A DNA stretch of 64,000 nt from a virus. Location: positions 12,607 through 76,606 of the IMG/VR virus record IMGVR_UViG_3300026519_000009; one strand, written 5' to 3'. Both the position numbers and the translations under genes were made by a program. Shown here piece after piece: positions 11,027 to 62,354 of the stretch (its first letter is position 1; each line of letters opens with the position of its first letter). The notes beneath the pieces were generated by a model. The model was not told the DNA's origin and searched no databases. It worked only from the letters and a program-made list of their open reading frames with translations.

Positions 11027-11092
11027 CCAAATAGCCGAAATGCCACCACCAATTCAGCAAGCCGAATTGGTGGTGGCATTTCGGAAAATTAG
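11027..11092. mobile_element. Mini hairpin element, two left ends head-to-head
   Basis: CCGAAATGCCACCACCAATTC-N8-GAATTGGTGGTGGCATTTCGG; both flanks resemble CCAAGTTG; abuts GATAAATA at 11092-11099. Confidence 0.8.
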
Positions 11093-11099
11093 ATAAATA
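11092..11099 (+). promoter_or_regulatory. Putative T4-type late promoter GATAAATA
   Basis: NATAAATA recurs just upstream of structural genes throughout the window; the T4 gp55 consensus is TATAAATA. Confidence 0.65.
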
Positions 11100-11134
11100 T
11101 AATATGCAACATATAAAATAACCGGATATTCTAA

Positions 11135-13153
11135 ATGACTGATAATATTAAAACATTAGACCCAGTACAGGGATTAATTGATTATGTAAATGATGTAAAA
11201 CCATTTCATACTAAAGTTATAGAAACGTTGGTAGAATATGTTGGGTTTGAATCGGTTAATACTACCATAAGTGAACAATACATAATGGAAATCGGGTTAA
11301 ATTATGGATATAATACACCCATAAGCGAATGTATTAATGCGATAGACGGACAAACCATTATTAATACTACGATACCAGTTCGTTCCAATATTACGTTTAT
11401 TGGCAGCCCACCGCTGCAATTATATGATTTTAATGATACTATAGTGTATGTTAATGGCATATTACAAGCGGAGTCATTAGACGGTGGCAGCCCACCCACG
11501 GGTGATTACACTATATCCGGTCCAAATCAAATAACGTTTACCAATCCTCTTATGGATGGTGATGAGGTAAAAATATATACGTTTACACATTTACAACAAG
11601 CACCAGATCAATGCTTGTTGGGTGGGTATGGTACAAATGGATTTGACTTTCCAACTAATATTCCAGTATTGTCGCCTGATATGTCAATATCATTACCGGC
11701 ATTCCCAGCAATTAGCGCCAATACACTAATTGTGTTGGGTGATCAAACAAAATTATTCAATCCAAATAAAAATTTAACGTTTCAATTAAATAGCTATATT
11801 GAAAATCCAATACTTGGAACTATGGTTAGTGATGCTAGCAATACAGGTTCTTTTATTGTAATTAACGCAACGGTAACGCCACGCACACTGGTGACAACAG
11901 AATATACTACCATAACACTTTCCGGTTTGACATTGATACCACCAGCAGTGCCCGCTGATCCAAATGAAAAATATGTTTCCATAATATCACTCGGCGGAAT
12001 ATCATATAACGGTATATTATCCTATAGTAATACCTTCGAGACAATAAATGCTGGTTCGCCACCGAATGAGGTACAAGTGCCGGACGAAGGGCATATATCC
12101 ATACCTATTGTGGGTATTAATGGTGGTTCGCCCGGTTCGTTTGTAATATCTGGTGATTTTAGAGGGAGTAATCTATTTGAACAAGATACCTTTATTGTAT
12201 CAAACTCAATAGGTAATGATGGTACATATGTTATATCTAATATATCATATGATATGGTAATGAATGAAACAACATTAACCACCTCAAGTACTATCACCGA
12301 GTTAACGATTAGTGGAAATATATCGTTAATAATACCGGCAAATGTATTTTTAATTTCAGGCGATTACACAGAATTTTTTAAACAAGGAACGGTAATTCGT
12401 GTACTATCAGGGAGTGTAATTGGTATATACACAACATTAATATCCTTTTTCAACAATAACAAAACATACATTAGGGTATTTGAAGATATTATTAATGATC
12501 CCGGCGCTGATATAATAGGAACAGTTACATCACCCGATGGAATTATAGTGAGCGGTGATCAATCAGGAACATATCTTACAGGTACCGCGTTTAATATATC
12601 GTCATCGCTGTTAAATAATGGTAGCTTTACCACAACCACTAATTCTACATATGATATAATAAATGATGAAACTACAATCCTTGTCAATGAGGCGTTAGAT
12701 ACAACGGATATTACCGGGAATATCCATGAATTTATAAGCGGTAACTTAGAAATCCTATCACCAGGATTTGGACAAACTTCACTTATTTGCGAAGAACTTC
12801 CAGACACTTTAATTAAAATAGGATTCATCGATACTCTTACAGTACAAACTACAACGGGTGGATCACCAAGTATACCAATGTTTCAATATGTTATTATAAA
12901 TACGTCTAATACAATTGGAAGCCCAATAGGCGTGAATTCAATATCAGTGCATGGGGATGCAACAAATGACATTATTAATGGAAACACGATAACTATTATA
13001 CATTCTACTTTTTCACCAAGTAATGATGGAATATATACGATATCATCCAACCCAACATATAATATCGGTGAGAATTTTACAACGTTTAATGTGTTAGAAG
13101 GTATAAATAATGTAGGTAATTCAGGTGGTTGGATTGAAGGAATTTTGCAATAA
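11135..13153 (+). CDS. Virion structural protein with repeated beta-rich modules
   Basis: 672-aa ORF with the same S-x-x-NDG-x-Y modules as the giant protein; late-promoter motif upstream. Confidence 0.65.
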   Translation: MTDNIKTLDPVQGLIDYVNDVKPFHTKVIETLVEYVGFESVNTTISEQYIMEIGLNYGYNTPISECINAIDGQTIINTTIPVRSNITFIGSPPLQLYDFNDTIVYVNGILQAESLDGGSPPTGDYTISGPNQITFTNPLMDGDEVKIYTFTHLQQAPDQCLLGGYGTNGFDFPTNIPVLSPDMSISLPAFPAISANTLIVLGDQTKLFNPNKNLTFQLNSYIENPILGTMVSDASNTGSFIVINATVTPRTLVTTEYTTITLSGLTLIPPAVPADPNEKYVSIISLGGISYNGILSYSNTFETINAGSPPNEVQVPDEGHISIPIVGINGGSPGSFVISGDFRGSNLFEQDTFIVSNSIGNDGTYVISNISYDMVMNETTLTTSSTITELTISGNISLIIPANVFLISGDYTEFFKQGTVIRVLSGSVIGIYTTLISFFNNNKTYIRVFEDIINDPGADIIGTVTSPDGIIVSGDQSGTYLTGTAFNISSSLLNNGSFTTTTNSTYDIINDETTILVNEALDTTDITGNIHEFISGNLEILSPGFGQTSLICEELPDTLIKIGFIDTLTVQTTTGGSPSIPMFQYVIINTSNTIGSPIGVNSISVHGDATNDIINGNTITIIHSTFSPSNDGIYTISSNPTYNIGENFTTFNVLEGINNVGNSGGWIEGILQ

Positions 13154-13455: not shown

Positions 13456-13463
13456 CATAAATA
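13456..13463 (+). promoter_or_regulatory. Putative late promoter CATAAATA
   Basis: Upstream of GGAG RBS and ORF 13491. Confidence 0.55.
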
Positions 13464-14701: not shown

Positions 14702-14761
14702 TTGAAGCGAGCACTTCCAATTCGGTAAGCTGAATTTGGTTGTGCTCGCCCGGTAATTTAG
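14702..14761 (-). mobile_element. Mini hairpin element (degenerate)
   Basis: Minus strand TTAT|CTAAATTACCGGGCGAGCACAACCAAATTCAGCTTACCGAATTGGAAGTGCTCGCTTCAA, between convergent genes. Confidence 0.75.
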
Positions 14762-14779
14762 ATAATGCGTTAGCAATCG

Positions 14780-17757: not shown

Positions 17758-18777
17758 CGTTGTTAAAATAGTAACAAAATGTAACAAGTGTTTTTTGTTA
17801 CTGATTATTCACAATGTCAACGAGCTTGCCAAGATGATCTTTGGACTGACGGCTCTCTTTTGTGCGTTTTTGGCCTCCTTGCAACGCATGGCGACCATAC
17901 TCTTTTAAATTATTTGCTGCATTAAAATCACGATCCATATTAACACCACAATCACAACTATACAACCGTTCCGACAATGTTAAATCGTTTTTTAATTGTC
18001 CGCAGCCACTACATACCGCGATTGCTTCCTTTCTTCTTTCGTGCCATTTCCGTTGCAACCGTGCCAACCGATTAAGATTGGATTTAAGGCATTGATTAGC
18101 TGGGAAAATTGTCCCATTGCTAATCACTGCCAATTCTTTAATTCCTAAATCAACGCCACCAATTGCTTCGCGGTTATGATCCTGTGGATCATATTCGTTG
18201 GTTTCAACCAAGATCGATGCGAAGTATTTTCCGGCGTGTTTACTAATAGTAACCTGCTTGGTCTGCCCGGCAAATCGTAATCGTTGCCGCATTTTTATCT
18301 TGGTCTTTAACTTTTCAATCCGTAGTTCTCGGCCAGCCACATCAAACTTTTCCGCTTCGCGCAAGGCAAATGAGTCACGAACACCCCGTCGTTTGAATCG
18401 GGAAAAGCCCGGTGTCTGTCCCTTCTTCACCCGACGAAAGAAATGACTAAAGGCATTATCCAAATCATCAATCGCATTGCGCGTAACACGCGATGACACC
18501 TCATTGTACCATGGAAACGTAGGTCTAATAACTCTCATGAAATGCTGATAACCAGCAGCTTTCGACCACTTATTCTCTGGATGACTAAAATGCGCCAGCA
18601 ATTGATTATAGCAATGCCGCCGATGACCACAGGCCATATCCAAATATTGGATATGGCCTGCTGTAGGTCGCAATTCAATTTTGTGTGCTAGTAACATAGT
18701 AGTATTTATCTACAAAATGTAACACGACTTGTTACATTTTGTCAAGTTTAGTTACATTTTAATCAACTGTTGGCAGC
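17758..18777 (-). mobile_element. IS607-like non-autonomous element (tnpB only) inserted at the GG of the nrdB RBS
   Basis: Minus strand: AATAATAA-GG-CTGCCAACAGT...tnpB...TTACTATTTTAACAAC-GG-TAAATCATAATG. Short repeats (AAAATGTAAC/GTTACATTTT) at both ends and no terminal inverted repeats. Confidence 0.7.
17798..18697 (-). CDS. tnpB: TnpB-family protein with an internal in-frame deletion (RuvC-II region absent)
   Basis: HTH-type N-terminus (AHKIELRPT), RuvC-I GVDLGIK, Zn finger CSGCG...CDCG, RuvC-III DRDFNAANNL. The bridge helix runs directly into the Zn finger. Confidence 0.88.
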   Translation of the reverse strand: MLLAHKIELRPTAGHIQYLDMACGHRRHCYNQLLAHFSHPENKWSKAAGYQHFMRVIRPTFPWYNEVSSRVTRNAIDDLDNAFSHFFRRVKKGQTPGFSRFKRRGVRDSFALREAEKFDVAGRELRIEKLKTKIKMRQRLRFAGQTKQVTISKHAGKYFASILVETNEYDPQDHNREAIGGVDLGIKELAVISNGTIFPANQCLKSNLNRLARLQRKWHERRKEAIAVCSGCGQLKNDLTLSERLYSCDCGVNMDRDFNAANNLKEYGRHALQGGQKRTKESRQSKDHLGKLVDIVNNQ

Positions 18778-18829
18778 CTTATTATTATTATTGCACTATT
18801 ATGGTTAATATATATTTATATGTTTATCA

Positions 18830-21187
18830 TCACAATACACATGAATCGCATTGATCATCGACATCAACATCATCATCCTTTTCTAAAATAACTTCACCAG
18901 CACCATCACTTGTATTTTGATAATACAACGTCTTAATTCCAAGCTTATATGCATAAATTATGTCCTTCAACAATTCTGACATCGGTACTTTACTATCGGC
19001 ATAGTTCTTAGGGTTATATGTTGTATTTGTTGATATCGACTGATCCGCCCACTTTTGAAATATGGCGGCTATTTCTAAATATCCACGTGTATGCGGCATG
19101 TCCCACAGGTATTCATATTTGTTTTTTAATTTATGGAACTCTGGTACTACTTGCTTCAGTGTACCATCCTTAGAACTCTTTATTGATACCGCCGCCCTTG
19201 GTGGTTCTATGCCATTCGACGAATTGATGACTTGGCTGGAACTTTCAATTGGCATCAATGCCATGACGGTTGAATTGCGCATTCCATGTTCTAATATTTC
19301 TTTTCGCAATGGTTCCCAGTCTATATGTGATGTTACCGTCAATAAACTATCTACTTCTTTTTTATAAGTATCAATCGGCAATATACCATCTGAATATTTA
19401 GTTTCATCGAACCAATCACATTTACCCTTTTCTTTAGCAAGGTTAACTGACGTGTTAATTAAGTGATATGATATCTTTTCGGCATATTCATTAACTAATT
19501 CATTTGCAGAACTGTCTGAATATTTAACACCATTTTTTGCAAGGAAGTATGCAAGATTACCAATCCCTACTCCCAATGTTCTGCGTTTATGCGCAGGAAT
19601 CGCGGCGGCAATCATTGGATAATCCTGATAGTCAAGTAATTCATCCAAACCACGAATAATAAGGTCACATGCAAGTATAATGTCTTCATCCGTCCGCATC
19701 ATGCCCATGTTTATTCCACCTAATGTACAAAGTGCGATTTCACCATATTTTTCACGAAAATCTTTCGGGGTAACATCTTTGAATTCTTCTAAATGGGTTT
19801 CCGATTCAAATGCTATGCGACTATTGCGTGTCAAAGGGGCGGTCGAAAGTGTAATTTCTGCACATAAATTTGACATTCTTACCGGACTAGTTTCTTCTTT
19901 AAATGAACTATGTGTATTCGAATGGTCAACATTGTGTATATAAATTCGACCGGTGTTGTTTCGTTCCATTATGACATTAGAAAAATGTTCTAATGCAGAT
20001 AGTGTTTTTTTCTTAATGGAATACGCACGTTCATATTTTTCATATAATTCACCGAACAGTTTCTGATCTTCAAAGAATGCGGCATATAAGTCTGGAACAT
20101 CATATGGATTAAATAATGTAATTTTTTCTCCCTTCAATAACCGTGTATATAGATACCCATTTATTTGGACACCATAGTCCATATGGCGAACACGGGTTTC
20201 TTCGGTTCCTTTATTATTTTTCAACACTATTAAATCTTCTGCTTCTAAATGCCAAATGGGGAAATATACGGTCGCGGATGCCCCCCGAATTGCACCTTGA
20301 CTACAACTCTTCAATGCGGCGTTAAAGTATTTGTAGAACGGAATATTACCGGTATGGAACGCTTCGCCCTCACGTATCGGCGATCCTTTAGCACGAATGG
20401 CACCCGCACCAATCCCAATCCCCGCACGCCGTGACGCATAGTCTACGATGCTACTCGCAACTTCATTAATACTACTTAGGCTATCACCTGTTTCGATCAA
20501 TGTACATGAACTAAATTGTCGTGTTGGTGTACGCATTCCTGCTATTAATGGCGTAGGTAAGGTGAATAATGATTTTGGACCTTTTGATATTGCATCATAA
20601 TAAGAACGAATATACCGCATTTTTGTATCTTCGGGATATTTACTAAATAATATGGCAGCAATAAGAATATACGCCATTTGTGGCGTTTCATAATATCTGC
20701 CTGTTATTCGGTCCTGCACCAAATATTTACCACGAAATTGTTCAACGCCCGCATATGATAATAACATATCGCGTTCATGTTTTACTATTTTATCTAATTT
20801 CATCCATTCATCTTCGGTAAATAATGATATAAGTTCGGAATCATATACACCTAACCTAATACATTTCTTAACATGTTCGATTAATACAGGAGGCTCGAAG
20901 CAATCATATGCCGTCTTACGCAACGTGAATATTGCTAACCGTGCAGCAACCCACTGATAGTTTGGATATTCTTCGGATATTAAATTGGCTGCGGATTTTA
21001 TTAAAGTTTCATGTATTTCTGATGTAGGGATTTTATTATACAGCTGCATTTTAGTTTTTATTTCAATTTCTGAAACTGAAACATTTGATATATTTTCGGT
21101 GCCCCAAAAAAGAACTGTGTGGATTTTGTCAAAATCCAATGGTGCTGTTTTACCATTCCGTTTAGTTACGTGAAGAAGATCGGTCAT
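18830..21187 (-). CDS. nrdA: Ribonucleotide reductase class Ia alpha subunit
   Basis: ATP-cone (VTKRNG), QFSSC, SNLCAEI, KTLYY and C-terminal CDSC. Confidence 0.98.
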   Translation of the reverse strand: MTDLLHVTKRNGKTAPLDFDKIHTVLFWGTENISNVSVSEIEIKTKMQLYNKIPTSEIHETLIKSAANLISEEYPNYQWVAARLAIFTLRKTAYDCFEPPVLIEHVKKCIRLGVYDSELISLFTEDEWMKLDKIVKHERDMLLSYAGVEQFRGKYLVQDRITGRYYETPQMAYILIAAILFSKYPEDTKMRYIRSYYDAISKGPKSLFTLPTPLIAGMRTPTRQFSSCTLIETGDSLSSINEVASSIVDYASRRAGIGIGAGAIRAKGSPIREGEAFHTGNIPFYKYFNAALKSCSQGAIRGASATVYFPIWHLEAEDLIVLKNNKGTEETRVRHMDYGVQINGYLYTRLLKGEKITLFNPYDVPDLYAAFFEDQKLFGELYEKYERAYSIKKKTLSALEHFSNVIMERNNTGRIYIHNVDHSNTHSSFKEETSPVRMSNLCAEITLSTAPLTRNSRIAFESETHLEEFKDVTPKDFREKYGEIALCTLGGINMGMMRTDEDIILACDLIIRGLDELLDYQDYPMIAAAIPAHKRRTLGVGIGNLAYFLAKNGVKYSDSSANELVNEYAEKISYHLINTSVNLAKEKGKCDWFDETKYSDGILPIDTYKKEVDSLLTVTSHIDWEPLRKEILEHGMRNSTVMALMPIESSSQVINSSNGIEPPRAAVSIKSSKDGTLKQVVPEFHKLKNKYEYLWDMPHTRGYLEIAAIFQKWADQSISTNTTYNPKNYADSKVPMSELLKDIIYAYKLGIKTLYYQNTSDGAGEVILEKDDDVDVDDQCDSCVL

Positions 21188-21487: not shown

Positions 21488-21547
21488 TTGAAGCGACTAC
21501 CACCAAATCAGCAAGCTGAATTTGGAAGTGGTATTCCGGCAACTTGG
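21488..21547 (-). mobile_element. Mini hairpin element
   Basis: Minus strand CCAAGTTGCCGGAATACCACTTCCAAATTCAGCTTGCTGATTTGGTGGTAGTCGCTTCAA. Confidence 0.88.
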
Positions 21548-21552
21548 GTATT

Positions 21553-23094
21553 CTATCTGTGCCAACGTGGATTCCTTGCAATAGGAACACCACGTTCTAC
21601 ACGTCCTACATTCGCATCGTTATAATTATGTTCACTGGAACCCATGTGACTATTGCCAGAATCAAGGTCCGTGGCCGATGCTAGTGTCATTGTCCTTGCC
21701 CATGGTTCATGTTCAGGAACACGGCTGGTTAACCATGCTTCAAGTGTTTCACTGGCGGACATACTGGCCGTTGCAGGTGTTGCGGGTGGGCCATTCAAAT
21801 GTATAGAGGTGCCCGTTACGATCACATCCGCTGCCGCTAATATATTGGTGGTAGCACCCGATTGTAAATTCAACATACCGCCACTCGCGGTAAGATGTAT
21901 ATCGGCAGTGGCCGTTAAAAATAAGTTGGGCATTGATATTCCCATATCACCAATTGAATCAATATTTGTTGACCCATTTGAACGAATATTTAGATTCCCA
22001 CTAGAATGTATTCGCATTTCGCCCTCAGTTGCCAAATGAATACCTTCTTTTGCAGTAACCCTAAATGCGCTGCCTGCCGTAAAATTTATATCCTTCTCGG
22101 CGTGCATCGAAATATTTCCTGCACCATACATATCAATATTTCCATTTTCGTCCATTTCAATCCAAGTGTTACCACCGGCTGTACTAATGTATATCCTTTC
22201 ATTAGTATCATCCATTATTATTTGATGACCATGTGTTGAACGTACACGAATTCTACAATTATCCGCATTATCAGACATTGAATATGAATGGAAGCCAGGT
22301 GTTGTCCAAGAATATACCTGTGGATCGTATACAAATTCGGTGGCACTAGATGCAAGCCCTTCTTGCACCCGACTTCTATTGTATCCCTGAGTGTTATTTA
22401 ATATATTTCCATCTTCTTCAGTGAAGTCAACTTCCTGATCATCTGCAACGCTGGTATAAATAACATCATTATTCGCAATATAAACTGCTGATAATCCAGC
22501 AACACCAACATCGGCACCTCGTGTTCTATATTCAAAATTCTTTCTAGGTGTTGGGATTGCTTGGCCGGTAACTGATTCATATTTTGTGAACGCATTGGTT
22601 TGGCTTGAATACAATGGTTGGATAGGGTCATCCGTTGAACTTAGTGGGCCGGTAGGTTCTTCGTTAGAAGCAGCTGTTTTATTATAAGTATATCGTCCAT
22701 GTGGCATTGTATGTGGAAGAAATTGATCATGCATTGCACCAAGATATATACGAAACCGTGGATCTGCATCAATACACCCCACCAACACGGTTGCCCCCAC
22801 TTTCGGAACATTGAACATACCATAGGCGACCGGGCCAAATGTTCTATCGTCACCACGACCACGACTGGCGGATTCATTAATTCCTGCTAATGGTGAAATT
22901 GGTGTTGCCCAAGGTATATCCTCAACCACAGTATTATTTAGATCACCAAATCGTGGACATGCTACGCGAATCCTACCCATTTGCTGTGGGTCATTTGTAT
23001 CCACGACCTCACCCAATGTTAAGTGATCAAAATTACCATTAGTTGTATTTATTTCATCGAAAATAGACATTACGTTCTTCCAGCTACTGGCCAT
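21553..23094 (-). CDS. Baseplate hub/central spike protein (gp5/VgrG-like)
   Basis: OB-fold start GEVVDTNDPQQMGRIRV, TPGFH/THGHQIIMDD motifs, beta-helix repeats and C-terminal RVPEHEPW. Confidence 0.85.
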   Translation of the reverse strand: MASSWKNVMSIFDEINTTNGNFDHLTLGEVVDTNDPQQMGRIRVACPRFGDLNNTVVEDIPWATPISPLAGINESASRGRGDDRTFGPVAYGMFNVPKVGATVLVGCIDADPRFRIYLGAMHDQFLPHTMPHGRYTYNKTAASNEEPTGPLSSTDDPIQPLYSSQTNAFTKYESVTGQAIPTPRKNFEYRTRGADVGVAGLSAVYIANNDVIYTSVADDQEVDFTEEDGNILNNTQGYNRSRVQEGLASSATEFVYDPQVYSWTTPGFHSYSMSDNADNCRIRVRSTHGHQIIMDDTNERIYISTAGGNTWIEMDENGNIDMYGAGNISMHAEKDINFTAGSAFRVTAKEGIHLATEGEMRIHSSGNLNIRSNGSTNIDSIGDMGISMPNLFLTATADIHLTASGGMLNLQSGATTNILAAADVIVTGTSIHLNGPPATPATASMSASETLEAWLTSRVPEHEPWARTMTLASATDLDSGNSHMGSSEHNYNDANVGRVERGVPIARNPRWHR

Positions 23095-25067
23095 CGGACC
23101 GTACTTTTCTTAACATCACCTACAGCAACGGTTTCACTATTCTTTACATTACCGGAATTGGACAAGGTAAATAGACCGGTTATTTCACGATGCACCGCTG
23201 TTCGATTCTGATCCTTGTCAACTATAACGTCACTCGTGGTATCTGTGTGTTGTTCTAATTTATCTGATACAGGTAAGCTCATCAAATCCAACTCTTGTGT
23301 AAATTCACCATTATTGAATATTTGTTTTACCCCAAATAACGTATAAAATCCGGTATACCAAAAATCACGATATTCAGTATTAACATCATTTGTATCAACT
23401 GGCATTTTAATATTTATTTTAACCAACGTAGGTGTATTCAACCAACTTGGGTTAATTGTTTGACCATCCCGCACAGGCTCTGTTTCTTGTCGATCTAATT
23501 CACTAGGCAATACTTGCATTTCATTTAATAATTGTGGGTTGCCATAAATCACCATCTTAGCTTCAATAGTTTCCAATGCTGCGTGACGGTTTAATAATGC
23601 TTGAAACGATGCACTATCTATAGGATTTCGTGTATTTCTTGCCATTGGTTGTTCTATTTTTGAACCAAGAAACAATGGTGTTGCGCTTCTACGTGTTTGA
23701 CCATTTGATGCAACAACGGTTGAGCCAGTGGTTTTTACTTGATATGAACGATTTCCTTCTTTGGTTGTTTGTTGGGTGGGGATGGTATCTGTTGTTGCTG
23801 CAATTTGAAAAAAGGCCATTCCCATTTCCATTTTAATATCAAACGACTTTATATCTACATTATTACCAGTAAATATATAGTCAAACGTAATTGATTGGCC
23901 GGGCAATGGTTCGAATACCGCACCATTAAACGCGGCTTCGTATGGGAGCATTGTCATTGCATATCGTTTTATATGATATTCAACAATAAACTGCGTCGAT
24001 GTGGAGTTTAGTCCCGACGTTATTTTGTAAATAAATTTTGTTCCGTCCTCCCGACCCTTACCATCATTAATGACACCATTACAGCTTGCCATTATTCGTT
24101 TAATAATTTCTTCAACACCTACTTTCGGTCCAAAGTTAAATGCACCATCCGCATTGATATTACTTATCCGAACATGTTCATTGTCACCCGCACTATACAC
24201 CGCACCATCCGCATAGTCAGGTGCAAAAATACGGTATTCAACCGGACGATAGTTTGCATCAAAAAACTTAGTGGCGCTATCAACACTTTCCTGAGCTGTT
24301 AATGGATTTCCTTCAAGCACGGATGCGTCATATAGTGTTTTTGCAAACTCTATTTTAGCTTGTTCAAGATATGCAGAGTATGATGTATTTATTTTGGTGG
24401 CTAATGATGCAAACGTTTCCGCCAAGCTATCTGATTGACCAATCTTAAATGAAAACCCTTTAAATATTTGTTGCGTTTGCGGTAGTTTACCCATACCATT
24501 TGTTGCACCCACAAAACTCATTTTATATTTAGCACCAGATGTATCAAAAATCGCTGATATATCATAATTAATAAACAACAATGGTCTAATATTAGATATC
24601 ATTTCCGTAGTGCCCTGTGTAGTATGTCCTACAAAAACGGTTTTCAATACAAAAACCAAACCAACCGGATCAGTGTTCAACTCATCGCACGCATTCGTAA
24701 GGACGTTCAGGAAGTTTGCGCCAAGTGGTTCTATAATATCAAGTTCACCATCTAATGCCATTGAAGTCGATTGTGGAATATTACCGTATCCTATAAAGTT
24801 TTCCATGGCAATAATATTTTCCCACGTAGCAGCGGTAATATAAAATCTAGCATCGGTCATTCCATCAATTAAAGTAATATATCGATTCTCGGTGCTGGTG
24901 CCGGTTGGACGGGAAGCGTAACGCGCACGATCACTTGGCTGTTGAAATACAACAATTTCACTAGTATTTGCCAGCTCTTCCGCAGCAGTACTATTATTAC
25001 ACACTAAAAGAATGTGATGATAGGAATATGATCTAAATTGCCCAAGTATATTTCGTGGTGTTGACAT
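23070..25067 (-). CDS. Baseplate hub protein (gp27-like)
   Basis: Immediately upstream of the gp5-like gene; C-terminal GNP...TGFY...F..GEFTQEL motif typical of hub proteins. Confidence 0.65.
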   Translation of the reverse strand: MSTPRNILGQFRSYSYHHILLVCNNSTAAEELANTSEIVVFQQPSDRARYASRPTGTSTENRYITLIDGMTDARFYITAATWENIIAMENFIGYGNIPQSTSMALDGELDIIEPLGANFLNVLTNACDELNTDPVGLVFVLKTVFVGHTTQGTTEMISNIRPLLFINYDISAIFDTSGAKYKMSFVGATNGMGKLPQTQQIFKGFSFKIGQSDSLAETFASLATKINTSYSAYLEQAKIEFAKTLYDASVLEGNPLTAQESVDSATKFFDANYRPVEYRIFAPDYADGAVYSAGDNEHVRISNINADGAFNFGPKVGVEEIIKRIMASCNGVINDGKGREDGTKFIYKITSGLNSTSTQFIVEYHIKRYAMTMLPYEAAFNGAVFEPLPGQSITFDYIFTGNNVDIKSFDIKMEMGMAFFQIAATTDTIPTQQTTKEGNRSYQVKTTGSTVVASNGQTRRSATPLFLGSKIEQPMARNTRNPIDSASFQALLNRHAALETIEAKMVIYGNPQLLNEMQVLPSELDRQETEPVRDGQTINPSWLNTPTLVKINIKMPVDTNDVNTEYRDFWYTGFYTLFGVKQIFNNGEFTQELDLMSLPVSDKLEQHTDTTSDVIVDKDQNRTAVHREITGLFTLSNSGNVKNSETVAVGDVKKSTVRWPVAGRT

Positions 25068-25105
25068 GTATTAATTATTCCAATTATTATTATTATTATT
25101 ATTAT

Positions 25106-25166
25106 CCAAGTTGCCGGAATACTACTTCCAAATTCAACAAGCTGTATTTGGAAGTAGTCGCCTCAC
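25106..25166 (+). mobile_element. Mini hairpin element
   Basis: TTAT|CCAAGTTGCCGGAATACTACTTCCAAATTCAACAAGCTGTATTTGGAAGTAGTCGCCTCA; compensatory CTAC/GTAG stem. Confidence 0.88.
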
Positions 25167-25180
25167 GTATACTAATATGA

Positions 25181-25540
25181 TTAAACTACGTTATTTCCAC
25201 CTTCCGATTTGGTAATTATATCCAATATTAATCTTGACTGTGTTGGAAGTCTGATAGCAACACCCGCTACTAATTCGGTTACCGGATCAACAATACTGTT
25301 ATATTGCAATACCAACCATGCAAATGTTGCCTTTCCATACACCCTATTTGAAATTAAATCGGGACGACCGGCTTCGTGTTCAAGAACAACAAGCAGGAAA
25401 TCATTTTCTTGTTGTGGTAGGGTACGTTTTTCCCACCATCCAAGTCTATTATTATAGATGTCCGTGGTTCCGCCCTGAACCAAACGTGAATTTCTATTTT
25501 CAACCGAGCTTGTACTAATGTTTTGAGTATTAAATGGCAT
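25181..25540 (-). CDS. Baseplate wedge protein (gp53/LysM-like)
   Basis: GRPDLISNRVYG...WLVLQYNSIVDP...G..IRLP motif. Confidence 0.8.
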   Translation of the reverse strand: MPFNTQNISTSSVENRNSRLVQGGTTDIYNNRLGWWEKRTLPQQENDFLLVVLEHEAGRPDLISNRVYGKATFAWLVLQYNSIVDPVTELVAGVAIRLPTQSRLILDIITKSEGGNNVV

Positions 25541-25542
25541 AA

Positions 25543-26265: not shown

Positions 26266-26305
26266 TTAGTATCCATTGATAATCATACATTGTATTGTTA
26301 TTTAT

Positions 26306-26751
26306 CCAATTTGCCGGAATACCACTTCCAAATTCAGCTTGGTGAATTTGGAAGTGGATGGATAGGCACCATTAGGACGATCTTGCACTTGTATATATTG
26401 CTTTAATATTTCAATTGGGGCAATAATTAAGTGAATTTAGTTCTTGAATTGATATTTAACTATGGTACACTGTTTATATGAAAAGAGCAATCATTCCCGA
26501 CAAAATAAAGCCATGAAGACTTTAAAAATTCGCGTCAATGACATCAAGCACACGGTTGCCAACAGTATTGAACCAAAGGGGGGGGTTGCGGTTGCCAACA
26601 GTCAATCGGGTGTTGATGGACACAAAACATAAATGATCAACAAAAATAGTAAGTGAAAACGAATTAGTGAAAACACCGAAGACATAATGAGCGACCATTG
26701 TGCGAATCCACGTTCAAGCGCAGATCGCTGATTTGGTGGTGGTCGCTTCAA
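26306..26751 (+). mobile_element. Internally deleted IS200/IS605-type element with tnpB fragments
   Basis: Full left end (hairpin then GGATGGATAGG), ATGAAGACTTTAAAAATTCGCGTC (MKTLKIRV, TnpB-like start), segments matching 47029-47078 and 47408-47448, and right end ...GGTGGTGGTCGCTTCAA. Confidence 0.85.
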
Positions 26752-27326: not shown

Positions 27327-27338
27327 AGTGGTATTTAT

Positions 27339-27487: not shown

Positions 27488-27488
27488 A

Positions 27489-46752: not shown

Positions 46753-46764
46753 ATTGATATTTAT

Positions 46765-50255: not shown

Positions 50256-50277
50256 TTGAATAATTCAGGCAACTTGG
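50256..50277 (-). mobile_element. Hairpin-less 22-bp remnant of the mini element
   Basis: Minus strand TTTAT|CCAAGTTGCCTGAATTATTCAA. Confidence 0.7.
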
Positions 50278-50292
50278 ATAAAGGAAAAAAAA

Positions 50293-50598: not shown

Positions 50599-50658
50599 AG
50601 CGCCACACACCACCAAATCAGCAAGTTGAATTTGGTGGTGTGGTAGTGGTAACTTCAA
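50595..50658. mobile_element. Mini element with TTCAA-type ends on both sides
   Basis: TTGAAGCGCCACACACCACCAAATCAGCAAGTTGAATTTGGTGGTGTGGTAGTGGTAACTTCAA. Confidence 0.8.
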
Positions 50659-52286
50659 TTCGTCCAATGTAGTTTTACTTTTCCACTATCCCATATAGTA
50701 TCGTAACCAATTGATTCAAGGATTTTGGATTTACTTAAATGTGCGGGATGCCCCTTCGCCACTAAATCTTTTTTAGATATAAACCTCCGATGTTGTCGAT
50801 TTGTGTAATCTGTCCACCATAATGCCGGTTTAGTATATCCGACACGCACAAATCCAATATGTTGTTTTACCAGTCCGGTAAACCAACGTCGATCAACATA
50901 TGCTATTATTTCATTATATCCAAAGGTGCGTATTGCATGTTTGAACATTTTAGACCCCAGGCCGGGATTATTTTTTTTATTAGTAACAAACCGCTTTAAT
51001 TCCACCACACTCGAATCGCCATGTTCATTATTGGTCTGCCCAAATACCATTACGCCAATTAAATTATCATTATTATCATAAGCACCAATTCGTTTATTTC
51101 CACAGCTTCCTGCATTCAATAAATGATATTGATTTAAAAATTTCCTAGCGGTAGGCCAATTAATTTCACGAATAGTAGTATTTCGTGCGTATACGCCCTT
51201 TTTACTCCGATTCATTAAATGTAGTAAGGTATCTTTGCATTTTTGTTGTTGATCACGCCATTCATCCTCAAATATATGAATAAGACGAATTCCTTGCGCT
51301 TCGCATAATTGGGTCTTGTTCAAATGATAGTTAGAATCCTTACCTTGTGCTGTAGAATGATAATACAAACCATTATATTCTATTGCTAACTTATATTGCG
51401 GAATATATATGTCCAACTCCAAGCCAATTATCTTTTTTGTGTTCGTTACAATATCAATTCCTAATGATTCTATCCATGTTGCAATATCGCGTTCCGCAAT
51501 TGATCGTGAATGTGTAATTGTCGCAATTTTATGTTTCTTAAAATATGTGGTAATTGTATCATTACATACCCCTAATCCAAGTGCAATTTGTCCAATTGTT
51601 TGCTTATGTACATTATGTTGTTCGGTTAACCATTCCTTATTTAATAAAAATACCATTGCTTCTTTGTTTTGATTAGCATGTTCGGTGCCATATCGGTGCC
51701 ATGATGTTTCTTTTATTTTATCTCGTATCGCATTATTTTGAAAAACATTTTCAACACCATATCTCATTAAATTAGTATTCCTAAGAGTTTCCATAACAAT
51801 AGGTGATTTGAGTGGGACGGTAACGCCGAAATTTCGTTTACATGTATCCTTTTTTCTGTTTTTTATTTCGTCAAGTTGTGAAATATTATCCACACCATAT
51901 TTTTGCTGAACCGTTACTTTTGCTTTTTCCTGTACTTTTTTGTTACCGAATGGTGATTCTGAACCATATTTTTTTAAGTTAGTTTCTTTGATTTTTTTCA
52001 TTCTTTTTGGATTTAACATAGCACATTTGACGGAGCAACATTCACGATAATCGCCGCCTTTTAGTTTGTTCCATGTCGCATCATTGCCACATACCACACA
52101 ACTTGGTAGCGAATATATATTGTTAGTAACATGCCAAATGCGCTGTTTTATACTAGCAGTTTTGGGTAAAAAAGCAGTTAATGTAAGCAATGCTGGATAT
52201 TGATCATGATATATTAATGCACCCAAACGCTTTAAAGATTTTGCGTGTTCTATTAAATCCGAAATTTCATTTTTTTTTGTCACCAT
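50655..52286 (-). CDS. Hef-like homing endonuclease-type protein (KYG repeats, PD-(D/E)xK/Vsr-like domain, acetyltransferase-like C-terminus)
   Basis: T...[KR]YG repeats; ELDIYIP..KLAIEYNGLYYH...LIHIFEDEW; ELKRF...YVDRRW...IWDSG. Confidence 0.8.
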   Translation of the reverse strand: MVTKKNEISDLIEHAKSLKRLGALIYHDQYPALLTLTAFLPKTASIKQRIWHVTNNIYSLPSCVVCGNDATWNKLKGGDYRECCSVKCAMLNPKRMKKIKETNLKKYGSESPFGNKKVQEKAKVTVQQKYGVDNISQLDEIKNRKKDTCKRNFGVTVPLKSPIVMETLRNTNLMRYGVENVFQNNAIRDKIKETSWHRYGTEHANQNKEAMVFLLNKEWLTEQHNVHKQTIGQIALGLGVCNDTITTYFKKHKIATITHSRSIAERDIATWIESLGIDIVTNTKKIIGLELDIYIPQYKLAIEYNGLYYHSTAQGKDSNYHLNKTQLCEAQGIRLIHIFEDEWRDQQQKCKDTLLHLMNRSKKGVYARNTTIREINWPTARKFLNQYHLLNAGSCGNKRIGAYDNNDNLIGVMVFGQTNNEHGDSSVVELKRFVTNKKNNPGLGSKMFKHAIRTFGYNEIIAYVDRRWFTGLVKQHIGFVRVGYTKPALWWTDYTNRQHRRFISKKDLVAKGHPAHLSKSKILESIGYDTIWDSGKVKLHWTN

Positions 52287-52357
52287 TGAATAAATACCTA
52301 TAGTTAGTTAAATGACACGTTTCTTATTATGAAACATTATATTGGAGTATTTATACG

Positions 52358-52992: not shown

Positions 52993-53025
52993 ACGTATAT
53001 GATAAATATATCATATTAGGAGTAT

Positions 53026-55847: not shown

Positions 55848-57284
55848 TTATTTATCTAAATTACCAATAATGCTCTCATTTATTTGTAATTGGATATCAC
55901 GTGGTCGCCAGTGTTTATAATCCCACGCAAAGGCATCTGCACATACAATATTATGATTTATGATTGTTCGATATTCATCTTTATTGCCAACTAAATCCAA
56001 AATCCGCTCCTTACAATGTTCAATATTATCGGGCATAATATCCAGTCCATATACAGCATTTAAGGTATCTACGGTAGAACAACCGGATTCGATCTTACGT
56101 GAAATAACTTCCACTAAAAAATTACCATTACCACAAGATGGTTCTAACACAGTCTGATTAGTGCTAAAAGCATTATTCTCCTCCAATTTATTCATAATAT
56201 CATCAATATAATATGAAGGTGTAAATATTTCACCCGTTCGTTTCACCCGTTCAAGTGAACGGGTGATTTTATTAACGGTAGTGTCATGTTTTAGACTAAT
56301 TAATTTTCCATCTTTTTTTCCATCTATTACTTGTTCATCCGCCGCATATCGCCAACCTACCAATTTTATCCATTCGATTAATTTTTTTGAGAACCCTTTT
56401 TTTTGATAATATGCACGTTCATACTCTTCTTTACTATCGTATTTATCCTGCAATACATCATATGGCAGTTTACCTATTGTATAGTCACTGACATGTGAAA
56501 TAGTGTTAGTCATACTTAATAATAAACCAAAAACACGCATCGATAAGTGAAAAAAAGTGTTTTTTGCTAAATGTTCTTCATTTTTATTAAACTCAAGCAT
56601 ATACCGTTTTGCGCTATTACTTTTTTTGTCCACCTTATCTTTTTTTGTAGTTGGCACCCAAGGATTGCTACCATCGAGGTCTAATTGTACACCCGTCAAT
56701 AGGCTGCGTCCTGTTAGATTAGCTAATGATTTAGATGTTCCTAGGTATGCTAGGTCTAATTTACTATTAAAATGAACTTTAGGCTTGTCCGAATTGGTGT
56801 ATGGTATTAATGGTATGGTGGGCACCCCCAAATTGGTAACACCGCAGATATTCCATAACTCCTTACCTTCATCGCCTATAAATAATGGGGTTCCTTGTGC
56901 TGACATATTAGTTGTGGTATAGTATGGTATATCATTAAAATACCGACACAGTTCAATTTCATCATTTTGCCGACTTCCATTCTTTAATATTATACATGCA
57001 CCAATAGCCTTAATTGGTTTATCGTTAACCGGATCAAAAAAAACACCAGCAGGGTATGTGAATAAATGCGTTATATTAGTATTATTACTTAATATTTCCC
57101 GCACTTCTTTATTACGGTGGGCACCGCCATTTAAGTAACTTGCTGACGTTATTATTGCCATTAATCCATTTTTTTTCAATAATTTTTGTTTAATTTGTAG
57201 TAAAAATTTAAGATCAATCCCACGATCCCAAGGCACATTGCCTACTACAATATCAAATTCACCCATTTCGTTCGACAAGTTCAA
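55848..57284 (-). CDS. Amino-DNA methyltransferase with permuted motif order
   Basis: N-terminal FDIVVGNVPW (motif IV-like); C-terminal GEIFTP...VLEPSCGNGNFL...YGLDI (motifs X, I, II). Confidence 0.78.
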   Translation of the reverse strand: MNLSNEMGEFDIVVGNVPWDRGIDLKFLLQIKQKLLKKNGLMAIITSASYLNGGAHRNKEVREILSNNTNITHLFTYPAGVFFDPVNDKPIKAIGACIILKNGSRQNDEIELCRYFNDIPYYTTTNMSAQGTPLFIGDEGKELWNICGVTNLGVPTIPLIPYTNSDKPKVHFNSKLDLAYLGTSKSLANLTGRSLLTGVQLDLDGSNPWVPTTKKDKVDKKSNSAKRYMLEFNKNEEHLAKNTFFHLSMRVFGLLLSMTNTISHVSDYTIGKLPYDVLQDKYDSKEEYERAYYQKKGFSKKLIEWIKLVGWRYAADEQVIDGKKDGKLISLKHDTTVNKITRSLERVKRTGEIFTPSYYIDDIMNKLEENNAFSTNQTVLEPSCGNGNFLVEVISRKIESGCSTVDTLNAVYGLDIMPDNIEHCKERILDLVGNKDEYRTIINHNIVCADAFAWDYKHWRPRDIQLQINESIIGNLDK

Positions 57285-57453: not shown

Positions 57454-57512
57454 TTGTGTGAACACCACAAAATTCAGATTTCTGATTTGGTGGTGATATT
57501 CCAGTAACTTGG
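57454..57512 (-). mobile_element. Mini hairpin element
   Basis: Minus strand TATTTAT|CCAAGTTACTGGAATATCACCACCAAATCAGAAATCTGAATTTTGTGGTG. Confidence 0.82.
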
Positions 57513-57519
57513 ATAAATA
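57512..57519 (+). promoter_or_regulatory. Putative late promoter GATAAATA for terL
   Basis: 36 nt upstream of the terL ATG; its first G belongs to the element. Confidence 0.65.
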
Positions 57520-59106: not shown

Positions 59107-59111
59107 ATTAT

Positions 59112-59170
59112 CCAAGTTGCCTGAATACCATCACCAAATCAGCGAGATGAATTTGAAAGTGGCAACTTTA
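59112..59170 (+). mobile_element. Mini hairpin element
   Basis: TTAT|CCAAGTTGCCTGAATACCATCACCAAATCAGCGAGATGAATTTGAAAGTGGCAACTT, between convergent terL and neck genes. Confidence 0.82.
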
Positions 59171-62100
59171 GCCTAAGATAAACGTACCAACTTGACCAAC
59201 ATCTTCGGGCGTGTCCACCACAAAATCATCAATCTGCTGCATTAATTCGTCCCGATAGGATTGTGCTAAACTCATTAGTTCACTTGAATTTAATGATATG
59301 CCACCACCTGCACCCGGAAGTGAAGCGAACTTTCCGCGAATATGACTTAGCATCATCATTGATTCCGCTAGTGCATATCGTTCTAACCAAGTTTTAATCA
59401 ACCTATCCTTTAATAAGTCCTGTTCTGTACGTTCTATCATACAATCAAGTAGAACACGTTCTGGACGGACAAAAGAACTATAAAACGAAAGTATTCTTTC
59501 GTTTTCATGCCACCCAAATGTTAATCGTGTTGCAAATAAATCTTCCAGTTGTTCGATATACTGGGACACTAGAAAAAAACTGGTTAGGTCATATGTTCCC
59601 ATGTTATATAGATGTTGCAGCACAACCTGTCCATATACACCTGCACCAGCCGCTGAACTTAAGAACGCACTATTAAACCGAAAGGCTGCCATAACATTAA
59701 CAATTTTATTATACCCCATTGTTTTATTAGTAAGGAGATATTGTTGTTTTTTGGGTTCGATATTTAAAAAGTAGAATCCACGCCGAACTGAAGCACTAGA
59801 ACGTTTTCTAAACGATTCCAACGCACGTGAGATCGCAATGTCAATTTGTGAATTAGTCAATTCGACTTCAACAACAGGATAACCCAATTGTTGTCTAATA
59901 CTATCCGCCAACTCCCGCCGTTCATCAGGTGTTCCATCTGTACCAACGCCTAATTCAAGATACGAAGGAATACCAGTTTTACCATCATTTCCCGGAATTG
60001 GTGTAAGGATATTGGGAATAATACTTAACTGGTTCCATAAAAATGAATTATCAGGAATATCACGTGTTGGATACGTTGTTACCAATCCATTATTAAGAAA
60101 CTCACATTGTGTTCCCGCAACGTCATTAACACCGGCATACGCGAAACCTGTTCCTATTGAGCAAGTGCTGGTACTAGATATCGCACTTTCCGAAGCCGGT
60201 ATTAAAATAGCATGGTCACTACCCAAACCCGTCGTTGAAAATGTTATTCCGCCATTTTCATTGAACGCCGCGATAGCGCATGGAATAGCGGCTACCCATG
60301 CGCTACCATTCCAAGTATTTAATACTTCAGAGGCGGTATCATACCAATGGCTTCCCCTTACTGGATTAAACGGAACAGTGGAGAATATCATATTTGTCCA
60401 CATTAAACCATTACGAACAAATAATGCATTATTTGACGTATCAAACCAATACACGCCAGTTGGTATATTCGTTGGATCGGTAGCAGAGTCAATTGGATCA
60501 ACGATATTCCAGCCCATGGCTGGCGTATCCCAAATCCGCCAAGTATTTGTAGATGGCATAAACCATGCTTCGCCTAATGCTACTTGCGTTGGATCAGTAC
60601 TACGGAAAATAGACGTAACCGTCACCCAATCGCCGCCATCCCAACGAAGTAATATATTATTGATAGTATCATTCCATATTGTGTTCACTATTATTGGGGC
60701 TGGCTCCGCTGGGTCTAATAATGATTGTATGAAATTAGATACCAGTGTCCAAGACAGATTAATACTATCCCAAGTGTACAATAAATCAGCGTTTGAATCC
60801 CACCATAACTCACATGATGTTATATCGGTTGGATCTTCAGGCCAGAATAATACAGATAATAAAACAAATCCATTTGGTGAGGTGGCCGAGTATTCCCGTA
60901 ATTCTTCTGTCACTGGATTGAACCATAATAATCCATCAGTAGGTGAAGTGGGTTCTATTTCTTGAAAAATGACAGTTGTAGTGATATCATTCCACACACC
61001 AGCGTTTCGAATTGACAATGTTGAATTAGTATCATTAAACCAATACGTTCCATTTAATAGTTGATTTGGTGCCTGTGGCCAAAAAATTGCATTTGTTGTA
61101 TTCCATTGCGTATCGTCAACATTCCATACCAATAATTCATTTATATTTTCATCATACCAATGGGTACCACATGGAACGGTAGGGCAATCACTAGGGTCTG
61201 TTGCTGAACTTAAAGTAACTTGTTCACACCATGTAGTGCCATTCCATTCTCTTGCGATGTTGTTATCAAACCAATATAACCCACAAGCAGGTGCGGTAGG
61301 ATCTGTTTCGCTTTCAATAAAAGGAATTACATTAAATCCGGTGGGCGTCGGTACATTCCAGCGATTTAGAATTTTATTTGTAGTGTCGTACCAGTATCCA
61401 CCAACCGTAATATTACTGGGATCAGTCGGTTCAATAAGAACAGGAATACTATTATATACCGTACCATCAAATTGAAATAGTTCTTGCTTTGTTACGTCCC
61501 AAAAAAAGGAATCAGCATTTGGTGGAAGTGGTGATTGTAACGGATTGCCAACTAATAAGATTTGTCGATTAATTTCATCTATTAAATCTTGATACGTACC
61601 AAGATTAATACCATCAGCTATGAATTCTACTGTTTTGTGTGTGTTGGGTTGTGCAAACTTATCATCAATTATGATATCAAACTCATAGTCTATTCCAGGA
61701 ATAAGCCCTGTTCCATCGGTTGGTAATACCCCACCCCCCGCGTTACCAAGGTTTATTATTTGTGTGGCTGGAACATCCGTTTGAATATTCCCAAATTTAT
61801 CGGAATACGCACGCACGCCATCCGCGTGATAACGGGTTTGGCAATCAACAGCGTATCCAGCTACATAATATGTGGTGTTGGGTTGTAAATCATTAATGAT
61901 AACAGACATGGTGAATGGTTCACCGTTACATTTCTTTTCACATTCGTAAAACGCACCTACTACTAATGCGGTGCCGATACGGTCAGCCGTGCTTAGATCA
62001 AAATCAGCGGTTGGATCACTAATATAAGTAACACCATCCTGAGGAATGTTGGTTGCATCTAACGGGGTTGAACTAAGAAGTAATACAATACCTGCATATA

Positions 62101-62263
62101 CACTATCAATGCCGGATGCACAACCTAACGCAGGCCCGGGTATATTCCATTCGATTGTTCCTTGACCAGCCGCTGGACATCCTTGCTTAAAGGATAATTT
62201 AATCTCTTGTCCTTCTGTTCGTAACGCATTTGCTGTATCAGCAATTGGATCAAACACACCCAT
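59168..62263 (-). CDS. Neck protein (T4 gp13-like C-terminal domain) with a long Trp-repeat extension
   Basis: LGYPVVEVELT..QID and IRGKFASLPGAGGGISLN motifs; about ten P...W[FY]DT....L..W.G..W repeats. Confidence 0.85.
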   Translation of the reverse strand: MGVFDPIADTANALRTEGQEIKLSFKQGCPAAGQGTIEWNIPGPALGCASGIDSVYAGIVLLLSSTPLDATNIPQDGVTYISDPTADFDLSTADRIGTALVVGAFYECEKKCNGEPFTMSVIINDLQPNTTYYVAGYAVDCQTRYHADGVRAYSDKFGNIQTDVPATQIINLGNAGGGVLPTDGTGLIPGIDYEFDIIIDDKFAQPNTHKTVEFIADGINLGTYQDLIDEINRQILLVGNPLQSPLPPNADSFFWDVTKQELFQFDGTVYNSIPVLIEPTDPSNITVGGYWYDTTNKILNRWNVPTPTGFNVIPFIESETDPTAPACGLYWFDNNIAREWNGTTWCEQVTLSSATDPSDCPTVPCGTHWYDENINELLVWNVDDTQWNTTNAIFWPQAPNQLLNGTYWFNDTNSTLSIRNAGVWNDITTTVIFQEIEPTSPTDGLLWFNPVTEELREYSATSPNGFVLLSVLFWPEDPTDITSCELWWDSNADLLYTWDSINLSWTLVSNFIQSLLDPAEPAPIIVNTIWNDTINNILLRWDGGDWVTVTSIFRSTDPTQVALGEAWFMPSTNTWRIWDTPAMGWNIVDPIDSATDPTNIPTGVYWFDTSNNALFVRNGLMWTNMIFSTVPFNPVRGSHWYDTASEVLNTWNGSAWVAAIPCAIAAFNENGGITFSTTGLGSDHAILIPASESAISSTSTCSIGTGFAYAGVNDVAGTQCEFLNNGLVTTYPTRDIPDNSFLWNQLSIIPNILTPIPGNDGKTGIPSYLELGVGTDGTPDERRELADSIRQQLGYPVVEVELTNSQIDIAISRALESFRKRSSASVRRGFYFLNIEPKKQQYLLTNKTMGYNKIVNVMAAFRFNSAFLSSAAGAGVYGQVVLQHLYNMGTYDLTSFFLVSQYIEQLEDLFATRLTFGWHENERILSFYSSFVRPERVLLDCMIERTEQDLLKDRLIKTWLERYALAESMMMLSHIRGKFASLPGAGGGISLNSSELMSLAQSYRDELMQQIDDFVVDTPEDVGQVGTFILG

Positions 62264-62295
62264 ATTAAACTCCAGTTAAATATGGTAGTATTTAT

Positions 62296-62354
62296 CCAAG
62301 TTGACTAAATACCATCTCTAAGTAAATGCACTTACTTAGAGATGCGGGCGACAA
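62296..62354 (+). mobile_element. Mini element with a divergent but intact stem
   Basis: TATTTAT|CCAAGTTGACTAAATAC-CATCTCTAAGTAA-N6-TTACTTAGAGATG-CGGGCGACAA. Confidence 0.7.

Follow-up and report, generated by a model that had tools for sequence, protein, structure and literature searches.

We analysed a 64,000-nt window (bases 12607-76606) of the 76,606-bp IMG/VR virus contig IMGVR_UViG_3300026519_000009, in which a short, hairpin-forming repeat stands between genes in about 30 copies, half of them flush against the heptamer ATAAATA (TATTTAT on the opposite strand), here called the box. Positions below are those of the window unless given as contig bases. The contig has a G+C content of 37% and is 24% complete according to CheckV, which makes it a fragment of a genome of roughly 320 kb. 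It encodes a giant protein of 3681 aa, related to virion or hypothetical proteins of the jumbo phages XacN1, Xoo-sp13, RAS14 and RsoM2USA, along with a terminase, a head-tail adaptor, tail tube proteins, a baseplate hub, ribonucleotide reductase and helicases. The public run that best matches its DNA is a hydrothermal-vent metagenome, and none of the public runs listed as containing it is an RNA run. A megablast search with 10 kb of the sequence gave no match among public phage records, and a scan of the window against Rfam at gathering thresholds returned nothing. Our comparisons drew on a related phage contig (G001; 50.5 kb, 14% complete) and on five large relatives (G002-G006) that were identified by their terminase genes, two of them 90-100% complete; the contig under study is G000. 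The repeats of G001 are 90-97% identical to the copies in G000, the few genes that the two contigs share are about 70% identical, and little else can be aligned.

The repeat is a non-autonomous derivative of an IS605-type element (IS200/IS605 family), of the kind named PATEs (palindrome-associated transposable elements), which are ends-only IS200/IS605 derivatives with end hairpins and sometimes the last part of tnpB (PMC7290912). Five long copies (contig bases 3055-3723 and 8403-8833; window positions 26306-26751, 44572-44913 and 46765-47482) align in the order left end, tnpB remnant, right end. Their left end follows TTAT and consists of CCAAGTTGCCGGAATA, a hairpin and ATGGATAGGCACCAT; the right end consists of GCGAAT, a hairpin and TCGCTTCAA, with which the element stops. 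The interior holds the first ~30 and the last ~100-130 codons of tnpB, and all five copies are internally deleted. Open reading frames (ORFs) inside the long copies A and E match the TNB domain of TnpB (E = 1e-21 to 1e-24), and copy D matches it weakly. No tnpA or other transposase gene was found in the 76.6-kb contig. An autonomous copy of the same element is present in G001, where it encodes a 155-aa Y1 transposase (PF01797, Y1_Tnp; E = 1.5e-41). The last codons of this gene overlap the left-end hairpin, and the gene and tnpB are arranged divergently. The nearest solved structure is the ISHp608 transposase (E = 6.7e-22), with the HUH motif and the catalytic Tyr aligned.

Subterminal hairpins are found at both ends of the element, the flanks read TTAT at one end and TCAA at the other, and a direct repeat is absent. 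Measured from the hairpin feet, TTAT stands 16 nt to the 5' side on the left, and TCAA ends 9 nt to the 3' side on the right. The corresponding distances in IS608 are 19 nt for TTAC, 3' of which the left end is cleaved, and 10 nt for TCAA, after which the right end is cleaved; four guide bases precede each foot on its 5' side (PMC3201880). The element described here shares with IS608/ISHp608 of Helicobacter pylori a Y1 HUH transposase, subterminal hairpins at both ends, the lack of inverted terminal repeats and of target duplication, an apparent insertion 3' of a tetranucleotide that is presumably read by four guide bases beside the hairpin foot, and the right end TCAA. It differs in its probable target (TTAT rather than TTAC), in its linkers (16 and 9 nt vs 19 and 10), in the divergent tnpA and tnpB of the IS605 arrangement, in its jumbo phage host, and in being represented mostly by gene-less, single-hairpin copies. 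At the left foot the presumed guide bases (on its 5' side) read AATA, which is complementary to TTAT position by position, and nearly all left ends stand at TTAT, with TTAA or TTAC being rare. Covariation of guide and target among copies with a variant guide was inconsistent, copies with the guide AATG lacking the predicted TTAC.

Each hairpin is flanked by one of two linkers. Copies of 60-65 nt are collapsed forms, in which a single hairpin has the left linker on one flank and the right linker on the opposite one; four collapsed copies have a second, inverted left linker instead of the right one. The stem covaries, with C-G (10 times) or T-A (8 times) at position 5 and A-T (9), T-A (7) or G-C (1) at position 6. 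Most hairpin loops contain AAGCT, within a loop that reads CAGCAAGCTGA (e.g., at 26334-26345 and 45422-45432), and AAGCT is also present in end-hairpin loops of Halanaerobium IS605 elements (PMC7290912). PATEs are thus similar in their short, hairpin-only copies and in this loop motif. Unlike them, many copies here are collapsed to one hairpin with a left linker plus a right or a second left linker, and the density of ~30 copies in 76 kb of phage DNA, half at one regulatory motif, is also different. Free-standing stem-loops derived from IS605 were already known (PMC2775950). IS200/IS605 elements have also been found resident in the genomes of virulent myophages: ISCaje1-4 of the T4-related Campylobacter phages CP220 and CPt10 are mostly tnpB-only and apparently move between phages (PMC2853527), but these are few full-length copies, and neither miniature derivatives nor a link to promoters were reported. 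A full-text literature search found no paper linking IS200/IS605 elements to phage late promoters.

Thirty-two left ends could be recognised in the whole contig, 17 abutting TATTTAT and about 15 abutting TTAT, TTAA or TTAC without a preceding TAT. A first-pass annotation of the window had listed twelve TATTTAT junctions (11092, 26299, 27332, 31109, 33111, 35261, 39166, 42984, 44913, 46758, 57512 and 62289) and stated that a gene starts 5-36 nt away at eleven of them. All coordinates read as claimed, with TATTTAT followed by a CCAAGTTG-type sequence or, on the other strand, its reverse complement ending in GATAAATA; the octamer at 33111 is AATAAATA. The distances from box to start codon, in the same order, are 35, 33, 5, 29, 31, 28, 5, 6, none, 5, 36 and 25 nt, the junction at 44913 being the exception. 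Beyond these twelve there are five more TATTTAT junctions, outside the window or degenerate, and in the whole contig 16 of the 17 left ends that abut TATTTAT face a start codon.

Several of the twelve copies stand before genes of virion proteins. Long copy C (26299-26751, + strand) runs from TATTTAT through the left end, a 3' remnant of tnpA and a tnpB remnant to the TCAA of its right end at 26751, and its box faces the gene of a 240-aa virion protein (start at 26265) at 33 nt; its right end overlaps the stop of a 192-aa gene. The two-hairpin copy at 31109-31259 (+), with hairpins at 31132-31166 (left) and 31206-31241 (right) and its TCAA end at 31259, has its box 29 nt before a 654-aa tail-fibre-like gene. 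Terminase and adaptor are each preceded by a box with a copy behind it: a single-hairpin copy at 57455-57519 (-), 36 nt before the gene of the terminase large subunit, and a copy at 62289-62352 (+), whose hairpin is diverged yet paired, 25 nt before the 1031-aa head-tail adaptor gene. A single-hairpin copy at 11028-11099 (-) carries left linkers on both sides; its right side is joined to ATAAATA (octamer on the + strand at 11092-11099), the box lying 35 nt before a 672-aa gene, and its left side directly follows the TAA stop of the giant gene.

The other copies at boxes are more varied in form. Beside TATTTAT at 27332-27385 (+) there is a truncated left end, with the box 5 nt before the 192-aa gene, a leaderless spacing. 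In run X2, a 96%-identical strain is longer by about 550 nt at 27359-27378, inside this copy, which suggests that the window copy is a deletion derivative of a longer element. A degenerate copy at 33111-33196 (+) has a left end beginning with T, giving the octamer AATAAATA, and its box is 31 nt before a 220-aa gene, while at 35261-35331 (+) a single-hairpin copy with one left and one right end has its box 28 nt before a NUDIX gene. Two single-hairpin copies have left linkers on both sides: that at 39166-39243 (+) abuts a box on its left, 5 nt before a 57-aa ORF, and on its right the TTAT that ends a T-tract terminator (39243-39276); that at 42984-43062 (+) abuts a box on its left, 6 nt before a 188-aa gene, and TTAC on its right. 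Long copy E (46758-47482, +) consists of the left end, a deleted tnpB (TNB, E = 2.6e-21) and the right end with TCAA at 47482, and its box is 5 nt before a 166-aa gene. In long copy D (44572-44920, -), with a 3' remnant of tnpB, TATTTAT/GATAAATA (44913-44920) faces no gene, and this is the sole box-type junction outside a promoter position.

By its distribution, ATAAATA is a genuine upstream motif that does not depend on the element. Of 42 element-free ATAAATA sites, 14 (33%) are sense-oriented and at most 68 nt upstream of a start codon, against 7.1% for the pooled heptamers of the same composition (odds ratio, OR = 6.5; P = 1.5e-6), and ATAAATA ranks highest among the 21 heptamers. In the window, GATAAATA was observed 20 times vs 8.5 +/- 2.9 in shuffles. 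The base before the heptamer is variable, with G, C, A and T all found. Five boxes are 5-6 nt from an ATG, a spacing that fits a transcription start at the A of the start codon. The genes behind the boxes code for the giant virion protein, a virion protein, a tail-fibre-like protein, two tail tube proteins, the terminase and the adaptor, and also for a NUDIX protein and a helicase.

Six octamers had been reported as free of the element, and all are present. Five of them do lack it: CATAAATA at 13456-13463 (+), 27 nt before a 395-aa gene; GATAAATA at 18703-18710 (-), 5 nt before a 299-aa TnpB-like gene and preceded by a different hairpin; GATAAATA at 33214-33221 (+), 23 nt before an ATG; AATAAATA at 52289-52296 (+), 61 nt before a tail tube gene; and GATAAATA at 53001-53008 (+), directly past a T-tract terminator and 17 nt before a 443-aa tail-tube-like gene. 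The status of the sixth (GATAAATA at 55849-55856, -, 22 nt before a 186-aa gene and overlapping the stop of the upstream gene) is uncertain: it is preceded by GGTAATTTAG, which matches the left-end linker at 11 of 14 positions, and the same stretch is the coding end of the upstream gene. Near the tail tube gene, TATAAATA is found on the other strand (52348-52355), 61 nt before an HNH endonuclease gene.

T4-type late promoters consist of a TATAAATA-like box that lies about 6-8 nt before the start site and have no fixed element farther upstream. In the jumbo phage CBB, which has a gp55-like sigma factor, ATAAATA is a predicted late promoter before structural genes (PMC5259590). The box resembles the T4 late and CBB/GAP32 motifs in being a short A/T stretch before structural genes with nothing conserved immediately upstream, and its heptamer is identical to that of CBB. 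It differs in that homologues of gp55, gp33 and gp45 were not found in the available fragments, in that the box is here a putative promoter, and in that the relatives add a bipartite, leaderless class with GGTAAC(C) ~16 nt upstream. The earlier description of a lone box with no -35 element thus fits the class found at the adaptor gene and leaves out this bipartite class. We infer that the boxes are putative late promoters.

As the first-pass annotation had noted, the target motif overlaps the box. TTAT is the first half of ATAAATA on the other strand, and the box is kept in relatives free of the element. TTAT is best read as the flanking target rather than as part of the element, because IS200/IS605 elements need a target tetranucleotide beside the left end but do not carry it, and because copies without a box cease to resemble one another past GGATAA. 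There the next three bases are TAA, CTA, TGG, AAA, AAA, TTT, AGG, CAA, TGC and ATT, and are not a decayed ATA. We also considered TTAT/ATAA as part of the repeat, inverted at both sides of the full palindromic copies, and dropped this since similarity stops sharply past GGATAA. The copies at TTAT without TAT include a single-hairpin copy at 25102-25165 (+), 35 nt before a 665-aa gene, further copies at 14702-14768 (-), 21488-21554 (-), 34245-34306, 34740-34804, 40982-41044, 45390-45453 and 59108-59171, and a left-end remnant at 50268-50284 (-). In two places (11024-11030 and 26748-26753) ends of the element touch or overlap the stop codons of upstream genes.

The empty site reconstructed at 46765 was correctly given as TATTTAT followed by C, the base after the right end at 47482. 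The related claim that the element rebuilds the promoter, by completing an octamer with its first base, is not supported. The base before the box is variable in the free boxes and in the relatives, and its reconstructed state before insertion is A, C, A, G, G and A at six complete copies; the G brought by the element is tolerated, not restorative. The suggestion that the element adds a terminator is likewise not supported, as none of its hairpins passes a scan for T-tract terminators; a part in stabilising or processing RNA is conceivable. Nor did we find support for the linker as a co-opted upstream promoter element, its conservation being no higher in box-adjacent than in other copies, and no sigma-70-type consensus is tied to the repeat. 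Two further candidates were rejected: linker plus box as an extended -10 or sigma-70 promoter, for which hexamers and spacings misfit, and the linker as a substitute for the GGTAAC -35 of the relatives, for which the similar hexamer GGCAAC is too close to TAAATA, at 5 nt instead of 17 nt.

The element is absent altogether from G002-G006. Before the adaptor gene, all four informative element-free relatives have ATAAATA 24-30 nt from the ATG (25 nt in the window) and the same GGAG ribosome site, with unrelated sequence upstream and C, C, T and T as the base before the box. A box precedes the gene of the 240-aa virion protein in three of four element-free relatives, and the giant gene in three of three, its GTG start being conserved as well. 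At these three loci the window differs by a left end flush against the box. A weak orthologue of the 654-aa gene, found in one relative, also has a box; for the 672-aa gene, homology to the orthologue is limited to the N-terminus and the box is absent. Since element-free relatives keep ATAAATA at the same place, the boxes are older than the insertions at the adaptor, virion-protein and giant-gene loci. An 88%-identical relative has the element at the same adaptor site, with a canonical hairpin arm where that of the window is diverged. At the convergent junction of terminase and adaptor (59108-59171), the 60-nt element of the window is exchanged in the 88%-identical relative (L015:3150-3190) for 32 nt of other sequence that include half a hairpin arm, which is a replacement and not an empty site.

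The terminase gene is arranged differently. Most relatives have nTAAATA 5-6 nt from its ATG, with GGTAAC(C) ~16 nt upstream. This bipartite class, (G)GTAAC(C/A)-N~15-nTAAATA-N5-6-ATG, precedes the terminase and some other genes in the relatives (L059-L110, e.g., L062:1467-1506 and L096:1468-1506), its geometry looks like a -35/-10 pair with a leaderless start, and it was not found in the contig of the window. The terminase start codon of the window is preceded by GGAAATA, a degenerate remnant of the ancestral box, 5 nt from the ATG.

The first-pass annotation had proposed to compare occupied TATTTAT with other intergenic TTAT sites, and the comparison gives an occupancy about 17-fold higher at TATTTAT, to which lethality of insertions elsewhere may contribute. 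Boxes are occupied in 17 cases and free in 12, vs 15 occupied and 179 free for other noncoding TTAT (OR = 16.9, P = 1e-9), i.e., ~60% vs 8%; when only sense-strand ATAA sites in noncoding upstream windows are counted, OR = 19. Seen from the element, 17 of the 32 left ends abut TATTTAT, vs 6.3% of unoccupied noncoding TTAT in the 76.6-kb contig (binomial P = 9e-13), and in related phage contigs 8 of 24 do (P = 7e-5).

Such an excess could reflect survival alone. A transposase that reads only TTAT would land anywhere, and the TTAT of the box would be nearly the sole harmless site, with no preference for promoters and no benefit from them. In seven of the 14 occupied regions the noncoding DNA upstream of the box offers no other TTAT or ATAA, no constraint is seen on the base at -5, and further ends of the element abut stop codons, where insertion is likewise harmless. 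Left ends away from promoter positions have TAT before TTAT in only 1 of 16 cases (copy D, 44913), the chance rate, which disfavours recognition of the whole heptamer. As a control we took those TTAT/ATAA sites that lie in noncoding DNA on the upstream side of these boxes and at which an insertion ought to do no more harm. Nine such sites are spread over the 14 regions, and the chance that all 14 insertions would fall at the box is ~0.005. The alternative sites, where present, are thus never used, which hints at something beyond survival, although the sample is small and the spacers are tiny. The contrast of ~60% with 8% and the same bias in the related phage contigs also speak against survival as the whole explanation, which we consider less likely than not but a serious alternative where the preference for boxes is concerned.

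With a probability of roughly 0.7, we favour the reading that the element landed on boxes that already existed and resemble promoters, its target TTAT being a part of them, and that these insertions persist. By analogy with IS608, a Y1 transposase acting in trans would insert the single-stranded element 3' of TTAT, and probably reads TTAT alone and not the whole heptamer. On the other strand TTAT reads ATAA, the tetranucleotide that opens the ATAAATA box found before many genes of this phage, several of them virion genes, so that insertion there would leave the left end flush with the upstream edge of the box and the heptamer, leader and gene untouched. Insertions would persist if this class of box needs nothing fixed immediately upstream, so that insertion is probably near-neutral, and spacers of 0-40 nt would leave almost no other harmless landing place.

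Several observations weigh against the reading of TTAT-directed landing on existing boxes. The link to virion genes is only a tendency, the box being found at 7 of 12 structural vs 3 of 10 metabolic genes in our tally, and five structural genes lack it. The terminase box is 36 nt from the ATG vs 5-6 nt in the relatives, and is thus not the result of an insertion at the ancestral box. Neutrality is not to be assumed for the 5-6-nt class of boxes, because insertion at the edge of the box would split a bipartite promoter. Box-adjacent linkers are no better conserved than other linkers. A clean filled/empty polymorphism was not seen, the 96%-identical strain keeping all copies in 25000-44999 save for its extra bases at 27359-27378. 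Likewise, no clean excision joint was found in the contigs of the two DNA runs compared over the same interval, where skips are most simply other repeat copies.

A further difficulty is that gp55-like sigma factors, which the first-pass annotation had suggested looking for, were not matched in the fragments G000 (24% complete) and G001 (14% complete) by the two PHROG families built around T4 gp55 (phrog_234, phrog_12791), although such an absence says nothing in fragments as incomplete as these. It is compatible with boxes that are not promoters at all, ATAAATA being an RNA-processing, translational or packaging-related signal and its association with the element a by-product of AT-rich 5' regions. 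Against this, seven of the eight positions of the T4 late box TATAAATA agree with the box, which also equals the ATAAATA motif predicted before structural genes of CBB, it stands out among heptamers of equal composition, and its recurrent distance of 5-6 nt to the ATG, here and in the relatives, fits a start at the A of the ATG. We regard a non-promoter role as very improbable.

Another difficulty comes from a long copy between divergent genes (contig bases 8366-8860, window -4240 to -3746), which has the left linker and an ATAAATA box on both sides. It is flanked on both sides, in inverted orientation, by ATTCTATTTAT, i.e., the box and five further identical bases; evidently box and left end were here duplicated together, which indicates an inverted duplication, and the two can thus multiply jointly by processes other than transposition. 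Such a copy recalls the PeSL (promoter-early stem-loop) cassettes of T4-type phages, which are repeated intergenic units of a stem-loop and a promoter and possible recombination points (PMC2839356, PMC4122927). Linker, hairpin and box could likewise be one regulatory unit that spreads by recombination or inverted duplication, or new boxes could arise beside the GATAA of the junction, so that the element brings or seeds promoters. The position of the terminase box, 31 nt upstream of the degenerate ancestral one, would suit this view, as would the five of eight octamer bases supplied by the junction, the absence of the -35-like GGTAAC of the relatives from every box here, and the covarying stem. 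The boxes of the adaptor, virion-protein and giant genes, kept in place in element-free relatives, argue the other way, as do the sharp loss of similarity after TTAT in half of the copies and the ordinary conservation of box-adjacent linkers. The arrangement of stem-loop and promoter repeated between phage genes is indeed alike. PeSLs, in contrast, combine early promoters of the sigma-70 type with functional terminators and do not represent transposon ends, whereas here the promoter-like box lies outside the repeat, the hairpin has no T-tract and the anatomy is that of a transposon (PMC2839356, PMC4122927). A promoter cassette therefore seems to us quite improbable.

The TTAT-directed reading also has a bolder extension, which we find doubtful. 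An IS605 lineage may have become specialised in landing on the late-promoter core of phages, which would probably double as the adjacent motif of its TnpB, giving it a safe harbour in any phage that uses this promoter and allowing it to hop between co-infecting phages. The left end, which now occupies the position of the -35-like GGTAAC of the relatives, may even have taken over part of the promoter architecture. If so, the promoter core, which cannot be lost by mutation and is present in dozens of copies per phage, would be a guaranteed harbour for a transposon.

Other mobile or repeated sequences are also present in the window. The 299-aa compact TnpB-like gene (HTH_OrfB, OrfB_IS605 and TNB domains; 17798-18830) lies between two ribonucleotide reductase genes, and a 220-nt stretch of it is 91% identical in G001. 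An HNH homing-endonuclease-like gene of 543 aa lies on the opposite strand at 50655-52286, between helicase and tail tube genes, and G001 has a 72%-identical stretch of it. Tandem repeats occur within two genes: about eight 21-nt units in a 222-aa gene (31420-31613) and two 174-nt units, 97% identical, in the tail-fibre-like gene (29905-30252).

Transposons are rare in virulent phages, which have almost no dispensable DNA. If TTAT-directed landing on existing boxes is correct, a four-base target inside a multi-copy late-promoter box would explain how ~30 copies can be accommodated in 76 kb without broken genes, and the element would act as a marker of promoter boxes in giant phages that have not been cultured. 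Module exchange could use the many near-identical hairpins between genes as crossover points, as has been proposed for PeSLs. Finally, if the preference for boxes is intrinsic, the element would be a natural example of a transposon targeted to a transcriptionally melted, single-stranded site.

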